A stretch of DNA of 7,699 nucleotides. Source: a virus (Duplodnaviria > Heunggongvirae > Uroviricota > Caudoviricetes). The stretch is from IMG/VR virus record IMGVR_UViG_2711768007_000002; one strand, 5' to 3'. The notes beneath the pieces are model-generated. The model had not been told where the DNA came from. It ran no database searches and worked only from the letters and a program-made list of their open reading frames with translations. Below are positions 1-7,699 of this stretch, piece after piece. How positions within the stretch are numbered: position 1 is the first letter of the stretch; the number at the start of each line of letters is the position of its first letter. The position numbers and the translations under genes were made by a program.

Positions 1-105
1 GAACAGGAGGGACAGCTGATAGAAACAGAAGCCACTGGAGCACCTCAAAAACACCATCATACACTAAATCAGTAAGTTGGCAGCATCACCTCATTCGTCT
101 GTTCC

Positions 106-612
106 TTAAATCTTCCAGGAAATTTCTGCATTGCCGTCAGCATCACCGGCACCTGTGAATTCAGCGTTGGTCAGCACCACGTTTTTGCCACTGACTGACG
201 TGGACATGAATCCACCCAGCGGCACTTTGATGGATTCATCAGTGGAGACGACAACGTATACCGGATCGCCTTTTTTGATAGTGCTGGCATCAAAATCAGA
301 ACCGAGATTAACGGTCACGTAGCCACGCTTCATGGCGTCGCCCGGGAAGTTCTTGCCTGTTCCCACCTGGCGAACCATGTCCGGCTGCGACGTGGTCGGA
401 TAAGGGCGCACGTAGATCCCCTTCACCTTGTCTGCGGTATCACCATCTGCCAGCGGCACGAAAAAACCGTCATCATCGTATTTACCAGCCAGGCCATAGG
501 CAGCGAAGGCGTTATCGGATTTAAGGACCACCGGTTCGACGGTTAAGTCCTGCGGGCGAGAGACAGCCCCGGCAATGCCAACAGGCATCCGGTACAGAAA
601 TACATTATTCAT
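106..612 (-). CDS. Phage head-associated protein of unknown function (168 aa), last ORF of the head-assembly block in this window; possibly a decoration or cement-type protein
   Basis: Uninterrupted 168-codon ORF with ATG at 612..610 and TAA at 108..106. Its start lies 3 nt downstream of the upstream gene's TAA, with an AAGGG Shine-Dalgarno just before it, suggesting translational coupling. The product is Gly/Asp/Val-rich with no hydrophobic segments. Function is inferred from position only. Confidence 0.6.
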   Translation of the reverse strand: MNNVFLYRMPVGIAGAVSRPQDLTVEPVVLKSDNAFAAYGLAGKYDDDGFFVPLADGDTADKVKGIYVRPYPTTSQPDMVRQVGTGKNFPGDAMKRGYVTVNLGSDFDASTIKKGDPVYVVVSTDESIKVPLGGFMSTSVSGKNVVLTNAEFTGAGDADGNAEISWKI

Positions 613-615
613 TTT

Positions 616-1836
616 TTACCCTTTACGGTTTGCCCAGAATTCAGCGTTTTGTTTGTTCAGGGAAGCGATACTGGTCATGCCCATGTTTAGGCGCTGTGCA
701 TCGCCGGTGGTGGCGCGGGTGTTTCGCCCTTTGGCAACCTCAGACACGGCATTAAACGCCATGTCGACCGATTGTTTCGGTAATTTGCGGATATCCGCAT
801 CACCGACTATCTGGCGAACCAGCGTTTTGTCAGCAGAAGCCAGAACCTCGCGTTTGAACGCGGTCGGTTTCATCTTACGGCTCAGATCGATACCCGGAAC
901 GATAACTTCGGCACGCCAGGCTGAGTCACCAGTAATCGTGGTTTCCTCTTCATCGTCCTCGCCGTCACCGGTCGGATTATCGTCAGGCTTATTATCGTTA
1001 TCGCCCGTGGCATTTCTTTCCAGCTTAGCCAGCAGGGCTTTCAGTAATGTTTTGAGGTCATCATCACTGTCGCCGGTTGGATCTCCGCCCATCTCTGGTG
1101 CTTTGTCCGGTAGTGGTTGCTGCGGGGACAGGTTGATGTTGAGATTAACGCCCTGCGGCAAATCCCCCTCATCTCCTGTAACCGATGCGGGAGCCGACTC
1201 CACCAGTTCGTTCATGGTGTCGGCATCTCCTGTCTTGATGGCCGCACGCATGCGGTTCCACCAGTTTTTCTTTTGATTTGCCATTGTGTCTCTGTCTCCA
1301 ATTGCACAACGATTTCCGGCTCTGCCTTTAGGGACAAGAGCCACATGGTTTCCGGTAATATCGACCTGCTCGGCTTTACCTGGCTCGGTCTGCTCGTACT
1401 CCGCGTCATAGCCGCACGACACTTCGCGCAGGCCATCTTCGATAAGCTGAATGGCGCTTTCGTCTTTGACGATAAGGTCAGCCAGCATCAAATCAGACTG
1501 CTCACCCGTCCCGCGCCGGACATTCTGGAGGTGCCCGACAGCAAGCTCTTTCCAGTTCTCGGGATTTACCAGCCGCACATTCCCGTTTTCATCTTCAGGA
1601 TGCAGGATCGTGATGCTCATCCCTTCGAATGAGGCAAGCGTGGCCGGATGGAATACCTGCTCAGGAGAACGCGTGACGACTATTTCACCGAACTTATCGG
1701 GTTTCAGTTTTGGCAGGTCATCAGCACCATAGAGCTGCTTACCTGTTCGTCCTATCGGCACGTCTTTGCACAGCAACGAGCCGTCAGCCAGGCGGTATCG
1801 GGTTTCCCCGAGCCTGGTCTCAAAAAAGTATTTCAT
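616..1836 (-). CDS. Phage capsid assembly protein, DUF2213-like (putative scaffold or prohead-protease type), 406 aa
   Basis: Uninterrupted 406-codon ORF with ATG at 1836..1834, 3 nt after the upstream gene's TAA, and TAA at 618..616. It has a globular N-terminal half, an acidic low-complexity linker (DSDDD...DNDNKPDDNPTGDGEDDEEE) and a helical K/R-rich C-terminal region, as in scaffolding-type proteins. It sits between the Mu F-like gene and a small head gene. The family assignment is from memory of DUF2213 phage proteins and was not searched. Confidence 0.65.
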   Translation of the reverse strand: MKYFFETRLGETRYRLADGSLLCKDVPIGRTGKQLYGADDLPKLKPDKFGEIVVTRSPEQVFHPATLASFEGMSITILHPEDENGNVRLVNPENWKELAVGHLQNVRRGTGEQSDLMLADLIVKDESAIQLIEDGLREVSCGYDAEYEQTEPGKAEQVDITGNHVALVPKGRAGNRCAIGDRDTMANQKKNWWNRMRAAIKTGDADTMNELVESAPASVTGDEGDLPQGVNLNINLSPQQPLPDKAPEMGGDPTGDSDDDLKTLLKALLAKLERNATGDNDNKPDDNPTGDGEDDEEETTITGDSAWRAEVIVPGIDLSRKMKPTAFKREVLASADKTLVRQIVGDADIRKLPKQSVDMAFNAVSEVAKGRNTRATTGDAQRLNMGMTSIASLNKQNAEFWANRKG

Positions 1837-1839
1837 GGG

Positions 1840-2622
1840 TTATGCTGCCCTTTTCATTGCGAATGGAACGCGAACAAACACGATCTCTTTATAGCAGCGG
1901 CAGTTTGGCAGCTCGCCCGCGTGGCCGGTCATGCCGTCCAAAGTTGGAGGTGAATCCCAGCGGACGAATTTACCTTTCATGTGATCGTGGGAATCTCGGA
2001 CATCGCCATCATCGGCTGTACGCCAAATATAACCATCCGAGCCAATAGCTATCGCTCGGGCCATATCCAGCGCGCCCGTTGCTCTTCCCAGTTCCGTTCG
2101 GGCAATCAGATCGGCCCTAGACTTAGCAACATCGCCGGTAGATGCAATCTCTTTAGCAAACTGCTCCGCCCGACCACCGGTGACAACAGCCTCTATCGCT
2201 TTGTTCTGGATGTCGTACACCCTGTCTGCGGCCTCGAGAGGCAGAGATTTGATGTACTTGACCTGTTCGGCGATGATGGATTGCATCACCTGGCCCACAG
2301 GAGCGCTTTCCACAAGATTGCGGAGCTCGCGACTGATGTTCTTGCTGTGTTGCCGCCAAACTTTCTCGTTCTGCCGGGTTAGGTCCGCAGTAAAGTTTTC
2401 CGCGACCTTTGTCGCCCAGGGGGTGATGATTTCACTGTAACGCTCCAGCGCCGCAATAATTTCCGTGATACTGTCATTTGAACCATCGTAGCGACCATTT
2501 ACGATGTCTCCGACCGCCCTCGCTATCCTGCGTAGGCTGGTTCGATACCGGATTTCCGCCTGACGGCTCCTGCGGTTCGTCATCAGGTTCGCCGATGCCG
2601 GGCGGCGCTTCATCTTCGGCAT
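1840..2622 (-). CDS. Phage head morphogenesis protein, Mu F / SPP1 gp7 family (260 aa from the first ATG)
   Basis: The C-terminal region carries the family-typical motif ...DSHDHMKGKFVRWDSPPTLDGMTGHAGELPNCRCY (conserved H...PNCRC). The ATG at 2622 is preceded by GAGGA 8 nt upstream. The ORF overlaps the portal 3' end by 149 nt in another frame, and no in-frame start exists downstream of the portal stop, so the start is uncertain. Stop is TAA at 1842..1840. Confidence 0.75.
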   Translation of the reverse strand: MPKMKRRPASANLMTNRRSRQAEIRYRTSLRRIARAVGDIVNGRYDGSNDSITEIIAALERYSEIITPWATKVAENFTADLTRQNEKVWRQHSKNISRELRNLVESAPVGQVMQSIIAEQVKYIKSLPLEAADRVYDIQNKAIEAVVTGGRAEQFAKEIASTGDVAKSRADLIARTELGRATGALDMARAIAIGSDGYIWRTADDGDVRDSHDHMKGKFVRWDSPPTLDGMTGHAGELPNCRCYKEIVFVRVPFAMKRAA

Positions 2623-3556
2623 TCTCGATGTCCTCGTCGGTAATGGATGCCCCGATGCCGGTTACGTCAGAATTTTCTCGCAAATCAGTCATAGCGGCTT
2701 TCAGTGTCATCAGACCATCACCCAGCGCCGTACTGATTGCGTTGGTGGTGTTTAACGCCACCGTTGAGCGATCGACATCAGACATTTGCCAGAGCGGGTT
2801 AAACTCAAACGTGAAATCGTCCGGCAGCGGCTTGCCAAGTTCCGAACGATGCATGATGTCCAGTATCCGCCGCACCGGAAGACGTAAACGCCTCTCCTGC
2901 AACGAACTGATGCGATCGTAATAGTTGGCAAGGTCTGCATCACCGGTAGAAAATCCTTTCGGGGACTGTCCGAACAACCGCACCAGTGGGATACCAACAG
3001 CGCCACTAATCTGTTCTACAAACTGCGAAAGGATGTCATCCAGACCACTGAAGCTGTACTGATGGGTTTCAAACTTATCCCGCGAGTCCATGAGCGTCAT
3101 GCCTTCATTACTCTGGAACTGTCGAATCAGGTCGATATTCTTCAGCAACGCTTCATACGCAGGACCACCAAGTGCGATAAGCTCGCGTAGCTTCTCCACG
3201 CTGTAGGTACGCAAATGCGCCTTGTAGACCAGCTGCGCCGCGCCGACAGTAGCGCTGTCGAACGCGGTAAGACGATCCCAGATACGCTCTACAACCGACA
3301 TTCCCCATTCGTTCTCGGTCATCTTCTGCTGAAATGGCAACGTGACGCCATCAAAGCGAATCAGGCGACTGTGATGAATGCGCCAGGCAGGAATTCCCGT
3401 TGCTGTGGTCACCACATCGTAAAACTCAGGTTTACCCAGGTCCGGCCCCATATCTTTAATGCGGCGGGTCAGTGCCGGGTCGACCATCCAGCGGTCGAGC
3501 GGGAGAATCCCCTTAAACTTGCCCTTACCGATGGTTTCGGGTCGCAGCGGGGTCAT
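2474..3556 (-). CDS. Longest uninterrupted segment of the portal frame (360 codons from an internal ATG, two codons after the second TAG); would encode an N-terminally truncated portal if translated
   Basis: This is the ORF given in the six-frame track. It is in the same frame as the upstream portal N-terminal segments. No convincing Shine-Dalgarno precedes the ATG at 3556 (upstream minus-strand sequence ATGATTGAGGGGTAGGCACCA has only a weak GAGGGG 12 nt away). Confidence 0.45.
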   Translation of the reverse strand: MTPLRPETIGKGKFKGILPLDRWMVDPALTRRIKDMGPDLGKPEFYDVVTTATGIPAWRIHHSRLIRFDGVTLPFQQKMTENEWGMSVVERIWDRLTAFDSATVGAAQLVYKAHLRTYSVEKLRELIALGGPAYEALLKNIDLIRQFQSNEGMTLMDSRDKFETHQYSFSGLDDILSQFVEQISGAVGIPLVRLFGQSPKGFSTGDADLANYYDRISSLQERRLRLPVRRILDIMHRSELGKPLPDDFTFEFNPLWQMSDVDRSTVALNTTNAISTALGDGLMTLKAAMTDLRENSDVTGIGASITDEDIENAEDEAPPGIGEPDDEPQEPSGGNPVSNQPTQDSEGGRRHRKWSLRWFK

Positions 3557-3940
3557 TGGTGCCTACCCCTCAATCATGATGAAACCCACCGCGCCGCCGT
3601 AGAGGCGCGACCATTTCAGCACGTCATTCAGCGCATCCCAGATTTGCAACTCATCCAGTTGTGATTCGAGAATGCCACGATCTTTTGCATCAATTTCCGA
3701 AGTGATGCGAATGCCTTTGCGGGTCATATCATCCGGGATAGCATCGACTGCTTCGCCGATGATCTAGGATGAACGATAGGACCATTCCACCAGCATGCGG
3801 TTACGACTGGTGAAATTAGCCCGGTAGGTGGATGCTGAGTGCTGGTTAGGTGTCTGCATCCCTACGCGGGCAATAAAATTCTCATAACCATCAGCTGTGG
3901 CCTGCACAGTTCGCCGCAGGGCTTGTTTGTTTCGTGCCAT
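2474..3940 (-). pseudogene. Portal protein gene, 488-codon frame interrupted by two in-frame amber (TAG) codons at codons 59 and 126
   Basis: The ATG at 3940..3938 overlaps the terL TGA (minus strand reads TGATG). Translation gives MARNKQALRRTVQATADGYENFIARVGMQTPNQHSASTYRANFTSRNRMLVEWSYRSS, then TAG (plus 3764-3766), then IIGEAVDAIPDDMTRKGIRITSEIDAKDRGILESQLDELQIWDALNDVLKWSRLYGGAVGFIMIEG, then TAG (plus 3563-3565), then APMTPLRPETIGKGKF... in the same frame to TGA at 2476..2474. Position directly after terL and the acidic C-terminal tail fit a portal. Confidence 0.75.
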
Positions 3941-5343
3941 CAGGCCTGTCTCCCCAGCTGTTCCCAGATATCCAGCGATGTATCGATTGGCGCGAAGGCC
4001 ATAATGAATGCATCAGCAACGTTTGGTGACGGTATCTCGCGTTTTGCGAGGTCTTTTTTACTTTCGACCATCACACGTCCGTTACGGTCGAAATCACGAT
4101 GAGGTGTTGTCAGTTCCAGTTTCAGCTTTTCAAGCAACGGACAACGAGAATCTATGCTGATCAGCTCATCCACAGGATACTGTTCTCCGTTGTTAATGGC
4201 GTTAAACGTATTTCTGAAACGGTCAGCCACCAGCCACCATGCCTGAGCCTTAAGATTTGCGAAAAAGTCTTTGTTGGGGATGCCGTTGTACTCGTCATCT
4301 GGCTCATGCACACCAGCACCGGCGTTAAACCTCTGGTAATTCACACGTCGCGCGTATGCGTTCTCGCTCTTCCGGTCAGCGTTAATTTCAGAGAATTTAG
4401 CACCGGCAGACGCACCAACACCGATAGAGTCGTAAACAATATCTGCTTCACGCTCCAGCGCCGCCTGATAAGTACGCTGGCAGCTCTTCAGTAATTCATC
4501 TTCTTTGGCCTTCCATTCGTCGGCCCAGAAAACAACGGATCCGTGACGGTAAACGTTAGCGCACTTATCTGTACCACTGTCAGCCACGTCAAAGCCAATA
4601 CGCTTTCTTCCACTGGGTTCGAAATTTAACGTTTTGTGCGCATCCACTGCGGCTTCTATCCAAGACAGTTTGATGATTGCCGCATCATCATCAGACTCCG
4701 GAACGCCCTCATACACATGTTTAAAACCATCCGGATCACGGCGTCGCGCCGCGTCGATAACCTTAAGCATGGTGTCAGACAGAAACGGATTTTCGTCATA
4801 GTTAATTTTGCGGATGAGAGTGCCTTCGGGCGGATCAACAACGAAGTTGCGCCAGACGAAATCAGTAACAAGTCCGGGGTTGAATATGAACCAGCATTCC
4901 GAACCCTCTTTACGGATCGTTGGCTCCAGAATTTTCCACTGGTATTCCGTCAGTGCGTGGGCTTCTTCCAGCCACAACACATCGATCCCCTCCAGTGACT
5001 TAATTTCTTCGATGTTGCGCCATAATCCATAAAAAACAAATTCCGAGCCAGTAACCCGGTTAATGATTTTGTTGTTCAGAATACGGAAACGGTGCCGCAG
5101 ACCAAACCTGTCTATCTGAATTTTGAGCAGGGTATACACCGACTCTTCGATTTTATTCTGGATCTGACGGGCACAACAAAAACGCAGGGTGTATTTATTC
5201 GACAGAAATATGGCAATGCCAGCGGCATCCCATGATTTTGACGATGACCGACCACCATAAAGCACTTTGTTACGTGCCCGCATAGTCCAGAAACTACGTA
5301 AAGCCGGATTCAGCGTCGGTTTGGATGTCAGAGTAGAAGTCAT
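3940..5343 (-). CDS. terL: Terminase large subunit, Sf6/P22 gp2-like (467 aa from the ATG at 5343)
   Basis: Walker A (VLYGGRSSSKS) lies about 30 residues from the proposed start, and a Walker B-like IDVLWLEEA follows. The block SLEGIDVLWLEEAHALTEYQWKILEPTIRKEGSECWFIFNPG matches the Sf6/P22-type terminase ATPase core as I remember it. Stop is TGA at 3942..3940. The start is uncertain: the track ORF begins at a TTG at 5451, in-frame ATGs lie at 5370, 5367, 5361 and 5343, and an AGGT precedes the ATGs at 5370/5367. I chose 5343 (MTSTLTSK...) on N-terminal spacing to Walker A. Confidence 0.85.
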   Translation of the reverse strand: MTSTLTSKPTLNPALRSFWTMRARNKVLYGGRSSSKSWDAAGIAIFLSNKYTLRFCCARQIQNKIEESVYTLLKIQIDRFGLRHRFRILNNKIINRVTGSEFVFYGLWRNIEEIKSLEGIDVLWLEEAHALTEYQWKILEPTIRKEGSECWFIFNPGLVTDFVWRNFVVDPPEGTLIRKINYDENPFLSDTMLKVIDAARRRDPDGFKHVYEGVPESDDDAAIIKLSWIEAAVDAHKTLNFEPSGRKRIGFDVADSGTDKCANVYRHGSVVFWADEWKAKEDELLKSCQRTYQAALEREADIVYDSIGVGASAGAKFSEINADRKSENAYARRVNYQRFNAGAGVHEPDDEYNGIPNKDFFANLKAQAWWLVADRFRNTFNAINNGEQYPVDELISIDSRCPLLEKLKLELTTPHRDFDRNGRVMVESKKDLAKREIPSPNVADAFIMAFAPIDTSLDIWEQLGRQA

Positions 5344-6058
5344 TGAGGTCACGCTCTCCATTGCCATCATCAATACCTGCATCACGGCGAAGACGATCAG
5401 CCTCCAGAGACACCTTATCAGTGGCGGCCTTGCGGTAGGCTGTATCAGCAAATATTTTTCCTACCGTCGCAAGCGTGCCAACGATGGACTCAATACGAAC
5501 TGTATTGCGCATCATTGCTTTCTCGGCGGCGCTGATATTTTCAATCAGCATCTTCCTTTCCTGGTCCCCATTAGCATCTTCCAGCGACACCAACCACCGA
5601 CCAATATTCTCTGCAGCGACAAGGTTGTTAGCACGAAGGCGAAATAATTCGTCCTCGAGCGTCAACGCTTTAGCGTCCTCTATCACCTCATCTTTGAGCA
5701 GAAGGCGACGGGCATAACCACCGTGTTTTAATGCCTGCTGGTTACCGGGTTGGAATGGGTTAGTCGGGGGATCGGTACGCATTCCGCGTATCGGTTTCGT
5801 ATCCGGTGTAGATTCTGTTTTTAGTTGCGTACTTTTTTGTGTAAGGCCAGTAATGGCAGGCTTTCTGCTGGTACGCACTTTCCTTTTTTGCGTACCATTT
5901 TTGCAAACCTGCGTACCGCCACTGCGTGCCCAACCAAGCTTTTTGGCCCTCTTCCTGATAGCCCCTTCTGTAACGCCGTATTTCTCGCCTATATCACGGA
6001 GGCTAAGGACTCCGGCCCGGTATGCCGATTCGATGGCCTCCCAGTCCGGTTTTGCCAT
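5294..6058 (-). CDS. terS: Terminase small subunit with N-terminal helix-turn-helix (254 aa)
   Basis: The N-terminus DWEAIESAYRAGVLSLRDIGEKYGVTEGAIRKRAKKLGW is the HTH signature of one terminase small-subunit family. It is followed by a basic S/T/P/K-rich linker and a helical C-terminal domain. The gene lies immediately upstream of terL, with AGGAAG 7 nt before the ATG at 6058. Stop is TAG at 5296..5294. Its 3' end overlaps the proposed terL start by about 50 nt. Confidence 0.75.
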   Translation of the reverse strand: MAKPDWEAIESAYRAGVLSLRDIGEKYGVTEGAIRKRAKKLGWARSGGTQVCKNGTQKRKVRTSRKPAITGLTQKSTQLKTESTPDTKPIRGMRTDPPTNPFQPGNQQALKHGGYARRLLLKDEVIEDAKALTLEDELFRLRANNLVAAENIGRWLVSLEDANGDQERKMLIENISAAEKAMMRNTVRIESIVGTLATVGKIFADTAYRKAATDKVSLEADRLRRDAGIDDGNGERDLNDFYSDIQTDAESGFT

Positions 6059-6255
6059 GATTATGCTTCCTGTGATTTACTGTTATCGCTGCCTGTCACA
6101 ATAGGTTGCTTTAATTCTTCCTCATCACTCACTCCTGCGACGCTCCGTGGCAGGGCCCCCCACAGGAGTACCTTGTAAATGTAAGGTGTTTAAGCCTAAA
6201 TTAAGTCGTATCACGGTTAAATAGCAAAGAAAAATTCACAGAAGGAAAGACATTG

Positions 6256-6765
6256 ATGGAGTGGATAAATGCTTTGATGAACTATTTTGTACTTCATCCA
6301 TATCGCCTATGGGGGCTTCTTTTTATAATAGCGTTCACAAAATCCACTTTACTCATTTCGGCGATATTGCCACCAGCATCAATTATGATGGCCACTGTAA
6401 TTACAGTCAGCAAGACGACTCTTTCACCATGGGAAGCTGGAATCACGGTCATGAGTGGCGCATGGTGCGGTACTATCGTTAATTACCATCTTGGTATAAT
6501 AATTGGGCATATCCCTCAACTTGCATGTATAATATCAAGCCGTTCCAATACAATAGAACGGGTTCGCCTTCAGTTGCAAAATAACTCTGTGTCAATACTT
6601 TTCACTTCGCGCTTTATCGCCGTGCTGCGTTATATTGCTCCTTTGGTGGCAGGAATGTTGCAACTTCATCCAGTGAAAGTGTATACAGTGAGTCTGATTT
6701 CAGCTGCTAGCTGGTCAGCACTTTATGTTGGTAGTTTTAGCTTCGTGTTGCCTTTTTTTAGCTAA
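6256..6765 (+). CDS. Multipass inner-membrane protein, DedA / VTT (SNARE-associated) family-like; moron on the strand opposite the late operon (169 aa)
   Basis: The ATG at 6256 is preceded by GAAGGAAAG 6 nt upstream (the track ORF starts at the adjacent TTG at 6253). Stop is TAA at 6763-6765. The product is strongly hydrophobic with several predicted transmembrane segments and DedA-like motifs (FTKSTLLISAILPPASIMMA; SGAWCGTIVNYHLGIIIGH). The region is visibly AT-rich relative to the flanking phage genes. The family call is from motif memory, not a search. Confidence 0.6.
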   Translation: MEWINALMNYFVLHPYRLWGLLFIIAFTKSTLLISAILPPASIMMATVITVSKTTLSPWEAGITVMSGAWCGTIVNYHLGIIIGHIPQLACIISSRSNTIERVRLQLQNNSVSILFTSRFIAVLRYIAPLVAGMLQLHPVKVYTVSLISAASWSALYVGSFSFVLPFFS

Positions 6766-6853
6766 ACTGCCCATAAAAAGCTCTTGCGAATCCAGCTTCC
6801 CCCATTCCTCTGACAACAGAATCTGATTTGAAGGATAATGAGTAAAATTACCG

Positions 6854-7125
6854 CTACCCCCCAAGGCATTGGATCCTGATGTACTCCTGAAGCATTCTCA
6901 ATGCTGTCTGGTCGCTGATGATTCCGTCCCGGATACCGAGAACGTTTCGTCCAGCAACTGGAGAGAGTTCGACGGTGGCATCATTGCCCATGCCGGAGGC
7001 GCTGGAGGTTTCGGCTGAGGATGGCACAGGGCATTTTCCTTTGACGAGCACCCGACCACCATTATCAAGCTTGCGCCGAAGAGCATCATTTTCAGCTTTC
7101 GCATCAGCTAACTCCTTCGTGTATT
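6854..7125 (-). CDS. Rz: Rz i-spanin, C-terminal 89 codons only (5' end lost in the assembly gap)
   Basis: Translation YTKELADAKAENDALRRKLDNGGRVLVKGKCPV...LQEYIRIQCLGG matches the conserved YTKELADAKAENDALR block and C-terminal Cys of lambda Rz as remembered. Stop is TAG at 6856..6854. The gene follows the endolysin on the same strand and contains Rz1 in another frame. Confidence 0.8.
6898..7104 (-). CDS. Rz1: Rz1 o-spanin, outer-membrane lipoprotein nested in the +1 frame of Rz (68 aa)
   Basis: MRKLKMMLFGASLIMVVGCSS carries a signal peptide and lipobox (VVGC), followed by a proline-rich segment PQPKPPAPPAWAMMPPS, as in lambda Rz1 (MLKLKMML...VVGC...PPPPPAW). A strong AAGGAG sits 7 nt upstream of the ATG at 7104. 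Stop is TGA at 6900..6898. Confidence 0.75.
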   Translation of the reverse strand: MRKLKMMLFGASLIMVVGCSSKENALCHPQPKPPAPPAWAMMPPSNSLQLLDETFSVSGTESSATRQH

Positions 7126-7305
7126 NNNNNNNNNNNNNNNNNNNNNNNNNNNNNNNNNNNNNNNNNNNNNNNNNNNNNNNNNNNNNNNNNNNNNNNNNNN
7201 NNNNNNNNNNNNNNNNNNNNNNNNNNNNNNNNNNNNNNNNNNNNNNNNNNNNNNNNNNNNNNNNNNNNNNNNNNNNNNNNNNNNNNNNNNNNNNNNNNNN
7301 NNNNN
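7126..7305. other. Assembly gap (180 N) within the lysis cassette
   Basis: Run of exactly 180 N characters. It removes the endolysin 3' end and the Rz 5' end, and makes the two genes appear as one 245-codon ORF in the six-frame track. Confidence 0.98.
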
Positions 7306-7591
7306 CCGGTATATCGACTTTGATGTACGGGTTAATTTGTCTGGCGACAGTGGCAAGGTCTTTATTCAGGAGAGCTTTGCATTCTGCTTCGGTATACGTT
7401 TTACCAGGCATGATGTCTTTTCCGGTGTGTCCGTGACATACAGTCCATACACCAATGATATCTTTGTATAGTATGTAGCTGACACCTTCCAGACCATCGT
7501 TACCACCTGGGCCAGTGATTAACACAGATGCTATAGCAACAGCCCCGCCACCAATAGCAACTGCAACAGCCTTGCGTAATGATGGCGACAT
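7306..7591 (-). CDS. R: SAR endolysin (phage-21 R-type lysozyme), N-terminal 95 codons; 3' end lost in the assembly gap
   Basis: The N-terminus [28 protein letters not shown] is a Gly/Ala-rich signal-arrest-release segment. It is followed by [27 protein letters not shown] with Glu35, Asp44 and Thr50 at the positions of the phage-21 R catalytic triad. A GAGAGGTG Shine-Dalgarno precedes the ATG at 7591. Confidence 0.85.
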
Positions 7592-7645
7592 TATTCACCT
7601 CTCGCAGCCTTACTAGACTGGCCCCCTGAATCTCCAGACAACCAG

Positions 7646-7665
7646 TATCACTTAAATAAGTGATA
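7646..7665. repeat. Perfect 9-bp inverted repeat with 2-bp spacer, TATCACTTA-AA-TAAGTGATA; candidate dimeric DNA-binding site, function unassigned
   Basis: Read directly from the sequence. It lies 55-74 bp upstream of the endolysin start in an AT-rich non-coding segment. The outer hexamer TATCAC is the same as the outer bases of lambda-type operator half-sites. Confidence 0.5.
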
Positions 7666-7699
7666 GTCTTAATACTAGTTTTTAGACTAGTCATTGGAG

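Follow-up and report, generated by a model that had tools for sequence, protein, structure and literature searches.

The portal gene carried by the window, by which we mean the whole stretch of 7,699 nucleotides that was analysed, is a pseudogene of the PF06381 portal family and not a functional member of it. Very probably, it is an ordinary pseudogene fixed in one bacterial lineage, Shigella sonnei, where it sits in a cryptic prophage that was acquired recently and has since decayed, and its two in-frame amber codons would be unselected. Three observations carry this reading: the portal frame is disrupted as compared with its intact orthologues, other virion genes of the same element are missing or interrupted, and the lesion is inherited and fixed in the host lineage. 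The frame does not code for a working protein, and no function requires the ambers to be read through.

The portal frame and its family

Translation of the window gave a minus-strand frame that runs from the ATG at 3940-3938 to the TGA at 2476-2474, that is, 488 codons and a stop, and whose start overlaps the terL stop in the motif TGATG (3942-3938). Exactly two internal stops are present, both TAG, and no frameshift, so that the window copy has no uninterrupted full-length portal frame. The two TAG codons at 59 and 126, their coordinates and the TGATG coupling had already been pointed out in an earlier reading made from the sequence alone (the sequence-only reading), together with the absence of frameshifts and of other stop types, and our retranslation confirmed each of these points. 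The features of the frame are as follows.

2474..3940, minus strand: portal (pseudo)gene of the PF06381/DUF1073 family, in which comparison with intact orthologues shows two internal TAG codons and one missense change
3766-3764, minus strand: amber 1, codon 59, TGG (Trp) to TAG; plus-strand C>T at 3765; context YRSS*IIG
3565-3563, minus strand: amber 2, codon 126, CAG (Gln) to TAG; plus-strand G>A at 3565; context IMIEG*APMT
3018, minus strand: portal missense change, GCA (Ala308) to GTA (Val), specific to S. sonnei; Ala is found in all relatives down to 86% nucleotide identity

Profile searches were performed with the intact portal orthologue WP_000113499.1, which is encoded by E. coli FDAARGOS_943, FDAARGOS_944 and VL40. 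This protein matched PF06381 (Phage_portal_3, formerly DUF1073) with an E value of 3.3e-106 and 355 bits, for a cut-off of 33.8, and TIGR01555 with 255 bits, for a cut-off of 196. It also matched the solved dodecameric portal of Pam3 (8hds; E=2e-37, query residues 15-413) and further solved portals, namely E217 gp19 (8fvh) and Pa193 / 9b41 gp19. The 360-residue fragment left in the window still reaches 274 bits against PF06381 and retains Pfam positions 84-355 of 357. Since both the Pfam model and the solved portals align from residues 15-55 onwards, the first 128 residues belong to the portal. These alignments overturn the possibility, raised by the sequence-only reading, that the family naturally starts at the internal ATG and that the upstream 384 bp form a separate gene.

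Neighbouring genes and ends of the window

The portal gene lies directly downstream of terL in a head-morphogenesis module and is followed by the genes of a Mu-F-like protein, a DUF2213 protein and a cement protein. Around it, the window contains the following features.

1..90: IS1 terminus, 90 bp; the full 768-bp IS1 is present in complete S. sonnei genomes
91..94, minus strand: remnant of the major capsid (DUF2184) gene, the ATG and one base
1840-2583, minus strand: Mu-F-like head morphogenesis gene, 247 residues in RefSeq relatives; some gene callers start it later (152 residues)
3940..5343, minus strand: terL, terminase large subunit (PF04466); the ORF is intact and its stop lies in the overlap with the portal start
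5294-6058, minus strand: gene in the terS position, 254 residues, with a TAG stop at 5294-5296
6253-6765, plus strand: DedA-family (VTT domain) gene, moron-like, located between the terS-like gene and Rz in the opposite orientation
7126..7305: run of 180 N, which stands for 407 bp of lysozyme (rrrD) and Rz, both intact in complete S. sonnei genomes
7614..7699: IS2 terminus, 86 bp; in complete genomes the IS2 measures 1331 bp, is flanked by a 5-bp target duplication and lies in a class II holin gene, about 20 nt short of its end

The Mu-F-like gene, in its 247-residue form, shares 110 nt with the 3' end of the portal gene, read in a different frame. The 254-residue protein encoded in the terS position had no match in Pfam or NCBIfam. 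Both this gene and Rz (stop at 6854-6856) end in TAG, in agreement with the sequence-only reading, which had taken TAG as a true terminator here. Because TAG terminates these two neighbouring genes, a wholesale reassignment of this codon was rejected. The DedA-family gene was found in 6 of 5,426 complete E. coli genomes, and in the five contexts that were examined (FDAARGOS_943, FDAARGOS_944, VL40, O121 201805972 and RMDEC465) it always adjoins a prophage lysis cassette. An E. coli genome can contain up to seven copies of this lysis cassette, and the assembly gap of 180 N probably results from this repetition. An ORF of 245 residues (6854..7591), considered as a lysozyme-Rz fusion created by deletion, turned out to be an artefact of reading through these N.

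The locus in Shigella sonnei and the ancestral codons

Of the ten complete or near-complete chromosomes that were fetched, six match the window at 100% identity over 1-7125 and 7306-7699, HE616528.1 and CP019689 among them. HE616528.1 is S. sonnei 53G, a member of lineage II, and CP019689 is S. sonnei 75/02, of lineage IIIc; the locus is the prophage region 75/02pp10, to which the PHAST label 'intact' was given and for which Salmonella phage SEN34 was the suggested homologue (PMC5447701). We read the portal gene at 26 S. sonnei loci, four of which (L015, L024, L025 and L028) contain single-base portal indels and were left out of the in-frame scoring. The 22 loci with an indel-free portal all have TAG, TAG and GTA at the three positions. 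The exact 360-residue C-terminal product was retrieved from 2,576 index blocks of public assemblies, mostly on contigs of 5-10 kb, and the exact 58-residue N-terminal fragment from 2,737 index blocks. The double-amber alleles are real, derived and specific to S. sonnei, and they are fixed across at least lineages II and III. The two ambers are not discussed in PMC7373316 or PMC5447701.

The ancestral state was read from relatives outside S. sonnei. The portal genes of the three closest E. coli copies (FDAARGOS_943, FDAARGOS_944 and VL40) differ from that of the window by three nucleotides only, all of them G:C>A:T. TGG, CAG, an Ala codon and an open frame are present in these three and in E. 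coli PEC148, A34 and ECMA0423, phage vB_EcoM-606R2 and S. flexneri SFBU1023, that is, in all eight non-sonnei genome or phage relatives, as well as in 39 of 39 metagenome contigs (86-99% identity). Since every non-sonnei relative examined has TGG and CAG, the ambers arose through single G:C>A:T transitions at W59 and Q126. The sequence-only reading had anticipated that Trp or Gln in homologues would indicate such transitions, and Trp (59) and Gln (126) are indeed the ancestral residues.

We looked for intermediate alleles with a single amber in three ways and found none. Exact-protein look-ups with the 360- and 58-residue fragments gave only the double-amber arrangement. With codon 59 left degenerate, the matches among genome contigs were limited to S. 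flexneri SFBU1023 and E. coli ECMA0423, both TGG/CAG; with codon 126 left degenerate, the search of metagenomes returned the 39 contigs, all TGG/CAG.

A truncated prophage of recent acquisition

The two ends of the window are IS1 and IS2 termini, and the window is therefore a typical IS-bounded contig of a short-read S. sonnei assembly. In the FDAARGOS_944 prophage, which is 99.8% identical, the cement protein gene is followed by genes for the major capsid protein (DUF2184), neck, a sheath-like DUF3383 protein, baseplate and tail fibres, and then by ipaHb and pgl. In S. sonnei 53G the prophage ends one base past the capsid ATG; the 768-bp IS1 comes next, and then the sequence just upstream of pgl. 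The capsid remnant was mapped through the locus L004, where window position 91 corresponds to position 3001 and the capsid gene occupies 2063..3004 on the minus strand. As a result, 19,075 bp of the FDAARGOS_944 arrangement, which occupy 4309986-4329060 of NZ_CP065613.1, are absent at the S. sonnei 53G locus, with IS1 in their place, and a further IS occupies the place of the upstream tRNA cluster. The statement of the sequence-only reading that all neighbouring genes are intact therefore holds inside the window and fails at its edges, where the major capsid gene is truncated by IS1 and the holin gene is interrupted by IS2. Judging from its gene content, the element would be unable to make either a capsid or a tail, whatever the ambers do.

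The gene ipaHb, which encodes a type III secretion effector, is located at the tail-fibre end of the FDAARGOS_944 locus (L029, 14761-16587), adjoining pgl, and is absent from the S. sonnei loci L006-L015. This copy of ipaHb was lost from S. sonnei in the 19-kb IS1-associated deletion.

Two more general points follow from this locus. IS-bounded short-read contigs can hide the lesions that explain a finding, as these lesions sit just beyond the contig ends. Moreover, the 'intact' call made by PHAST for 75/02pp10 is contradicted by the gene content of the region (no major capsid or tail genes, several IS), and completeness labels of this kind need caution.

The chromosomal flank (pgl, ybhD, ybhJ and ybhC; L009 14235-21083) is 97.9-98.5% identical between S. 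sonnei and FDAARGOS_944, whereas the prophages, inserted at the same site, are 99.8% identical. This difference indicates that the prophage is a recent acquisition. It would be younger than the split between its hosts, having spread horizontally or integrated repeatedly at the same site. In the S. sonnei flank, an IS1 takes the place of ybhH and ybhI. If the published S. sonnei rate (6.0e-7 substitutions per site per year) is applied to the 7.3 kb, the five substitutions would represent, very roughly, a thousand years.

The sister copies have lesions of their own. The FDAARGOS_943 copy contains an IS2 in terL and a TGG>TGA change (W209) in the Mu-F-like gene, and the S. flexneri SFBU1023 copy has a 1,331-bp insertion in terL at a site different from that of FDAARGOS_943. 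According to these comparisons, the sister copies decay independently, and in genes other than the portal gene. The sequence-only reading considered the clean frame with two ambers to be unlike slow pseudogene decay. This argument loses its force with a prophage that is only about five substitutions old, all of them G:C>A:T, and with the FDAARGOS_943 copy, which independently gained TGG>TGA in the next gene and an IS2 in terL.

Mutation spectrum and chance expectation

A raw count against the three closest genomes gave eight changes private to the window. Outgroups placed two of them (629 and 5062) on another branch and left one (5600) ambiguous, so that five outgroup-polarised, S. sonnei-derived substitutions remain among 7,343 comparable bases, at 3018, 3565, 3765, 6537 and 7470. 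All five are G:C>A:T. The first three are in the portal gene, 6537 is a synonymous change in the DedA-family gene and 7470 lies in the lysozyme gene. Two polymorphisms internal to S. sonnei (5318 and 6542) are G/A differences with A in the variant strains; they are unpolarised. A G:C>A:T-dominated spectrum in unselected sequence of recently emerged clonal pathogens was reportedly described by Hershberg and Petrov in 2010.

The dcm gene is common in E. coli and Shigella. The substitution at 3765, which created W59am, turned the internal C of a CCAGG motif (3764-3768) into T, giving CTAGG, and this position is one of the 30 Dcm-site 5-methylcytosine positions (CCWGG, assigned by motif) among the 3,753 G/C sites of the window. 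Both 3565 (Q126am) and 3018 (A308V) lie off Dcm sites. From its position, W59am probably arose by deamination of a Dcm 5-methylcytosine. A C>T change at the methylated C of CCAGG is a classical amber-generating deamination hotspot (Coulondre et al. 1978, for lacI; reviewed in PMC12606429).

We then asked how unusual two nonsense mutations in one gene are. In the portal gene, 6.2% of G:C>A:T transitions create a stop. When five such transitions were placed at random on the G/C sites of the window, the probability of at least two nonsense mutations was 0.020, that of at least two within one gene was 0.004, and that of at least three of the five falling in the portal gene, which represents 20% of the sequence, was 0.068, it being understood that these p values concern a window chosen post hoc for its pattern and not pre-specified. 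Given the observed density of substitutions (about 1.3e-3 per G/C site), the chance that two nonsense mutations hit a neutral gene as long as the portal gene is about 0.2%. Shigella reference genomes contain at least 199 pseudogenes each, and 719 coding sequences have been inactivated in one or more of the S. sonnei genomes (PMC7373316); 23 prophage regions were found in one S. sonnei strain (PMC5447701). With about 0.2% per gene and hundreds of decaying genes, about one double-nonsense gene is expected per genome. Thus, a double nonsense in one gene is unusual for a single window and unremarkable genome-wide. Strand-coordinated hypermutation by a deaminase was also considered and was rejected because the portal changes are of mixed plus-strand sense (G>A, G>A and C>T) and lie 200-550 bp apart.

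Discussion

We propose the following scenario for this locus. A lambdoid early and lysis region joined to a SEN34-like myovirus head module would have been inserted next to pgl and, after this recent acquisition, would have undergone the decay that is typical of Shigella. An IS1-associated deletion of 19 kb would have removed the major capsid, neck, sheath, baseplate, tail fibre and ipaH genes; IS2 would have entered the holin gene and another IS would have replaced the tRNA region. The portal gene would have gained three unselected G:C>A:T transitions, W59am at a Dcm CCAGG site, Q126am and A308V. Fixation of all these lesions would precede the last common ancestor that the sampled S. sonnei lineages share, and their inheritance would now be clonal. 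The identity of the locus, the ancestral codons, the fixation, the deletion and the IS insertions are shown by the comparisons above, and the order of these events, the neutrality of the mutations and the deamination origin of W59am are inferred. A recently inactivated or defective prophage was the first candidate of the sequence-only reading, and it is the right one. Against our scenario stand the concentration of three of the five derived substitutions in the portal gene (p ~0.07) and of two nonsense mutations in one gene (p ~0.004), as well as the location of two of the three portal changes off Dcm sites.

This concentration is precisely what a selective explanation would account for. In such a case, at least one amber would have been favoured because the portal or the assembly process is costly to the host, for example through an Avs4-type portal-sensing defence or through the waste associated with induction, the remaining changes being neutral. 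The clustering in the portal gene, the two nonsense mutations and the location of the third change at a residue conserved in all relatives all go in this direction. However, the pattern was picked post hoc from a scan, and about one such gene is expected in each S. sonnei genome. Moreover, a portal knock-out does not prevent lysis or killing upon induction, selection accounts for at most one of the two stops, and W59am is on a known mutational hotspot. There is also no convergent loss of the portal, as the sister copies decay in terL and in the Mu-F-like gene. We therefore regard selected loss of the portal as improbable. A more specific version, in which the location of all three S. sonnei-specific head-module changes in the portal gene would reflect positive selection for portal loss before the capsid-tail deletion, possibly through a portal-sensing abortive-infection system, seems to us a little less probable still; if true, it would represent a natural case in which the host drives the domestication of its prophage by specifically knocking out the trigger of a defence.

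The explanations that would preserve a functional product fare worse. The ambers could belong to an amber-mutant phage in which a suppressor tRNA or efficient read-through restores a full-length portal, and the fact that both stops are TAG in an otherwise clean frame is what one would expect of it. Yet the locus has lost its genes for the major capsid protein, neck, tail, baseplate and fibres, and IS2 interrupts its holin gene; a suppressor-dependent phage, as envisaged by the sequence-only reading, would be pointless, its portal having no assembly partners left. TAG is, in addition, the normal terminator of the terS-like and Rz genes, and the stops are conserved in none of the homologues (eight genome or phage relatives and 39 metagenome contigs). 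A tRNA scan found no tRNA gene in the window, and only tRNA-Met in three 21-kb S. sonnei loci (L009, L006 and L012). Such a phage is thus very unlikely, and we give the same very small chance to the expression of the 360-codon C-terminal ORF (3556..2474), the shortened product having an independent function, which was another proposal of the sequence-only reading. This ORF begins with ATG and is preceded by a GAGG at a distance of about 11 nt, it is predicted by gene callers and, as mentioned above, it keeps most of the Pfam model. On the other hand, no homologue starts at Met129, the family profile and the solved dodecameric portals begin well upstream of it, the ORF carries a substitution at a conserved Ala and the partners of the putative protein are deleted. 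The least probable explanation, with a practically negligible chance, is a sequencing or assembly error masking sense codons. In its favour, the window is an IS-bounded, draft-type contig with a run of N, and the sequence-only reading had listed base-call errors among its candidates; nevertheless, lineages II and III both carry the identical allele in complete genomes obtained independently, more than 2,500 index blocks from many projects contain it as well, and base-call error is excluded on these grounds.

The lineage-fixed portal pseudogene that we favour is nothing new in kind; the IS-driven decay of the S. sonnei genome is already well described. The cryptic prophages and pseudogenes of Shigella have been shaped by the expansion of IS1, IS2, IS600 and IS911 (Hawkey et al. 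2020, PMC7373316), and the present locus resembles them in its organism, in the locus itself (75/02pp10), in IS-mediated deletion and interruption and in clone-fixed nonsense mutations, with no essential difference. Its biological weight is small, since it adds one more fixed pseudogene to the cryptic prophages of a pathogen. What it illustrates is how readily a very young pseudogene exposed to AT-biased mutation comes to carry two nonsense codons in a frame that otherwise looks clean, one of the two being here at a Dcm hotspot. W59am is of the same type as the Dcm deamination ambers of lacI, with T replacing the second C of CCAGG, whereas Q126am and A308V differ from them in lying off Dcm sites. 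The locus also recalls the amber phages of the laboratory (lambda Aam, Bam and Sam7 on supE or supF hosts), with TAG codons within an essential morphogenesis gene and a clean frame. However, it belongs to a natural clinical lineage in which the remaining morphogenesis genes are deleted, and this resemblance is superficial.

The closest counterparts of the head module are found in SEN34, in Escherichia phages vB_EcoM-606R2, 689R2, 611R5 and 683R1, and in the FDAARGOS_944 and VL40 prophages, which all share the gene order terL, DUF1073 portal, Mu-F-like protein, DUF2213, cement protein and DUF2184 capsid. At the nucleotide level, the portal gene of the window is 85% identical to that of SEN34, 98% to that of 606R2 and 99.8% to that of FDAARGOS_944. 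The portal frame is open in these relatives, and the downstream structural genes are present in FDAARGOS_944 and 606R2, the two in which they were examined, whereas the S. sonnei copy has two ambers and nothing left downstream of the cement protein gene. In E. coli RMDEC465, a coding sequence downstream of TerL annotated as 'anti-CBASS Acb1 family' was considered as a possible truncated portal and discarded, as it has no similarity to the portal studied here. Finally, in place of the 254-residue protein of the terS position, phage 606R2 and E. coli A34 encode an unrelated, shorter terminase small subunit together with a different terL, which points to mosaicism at the terminase-portal boundary.
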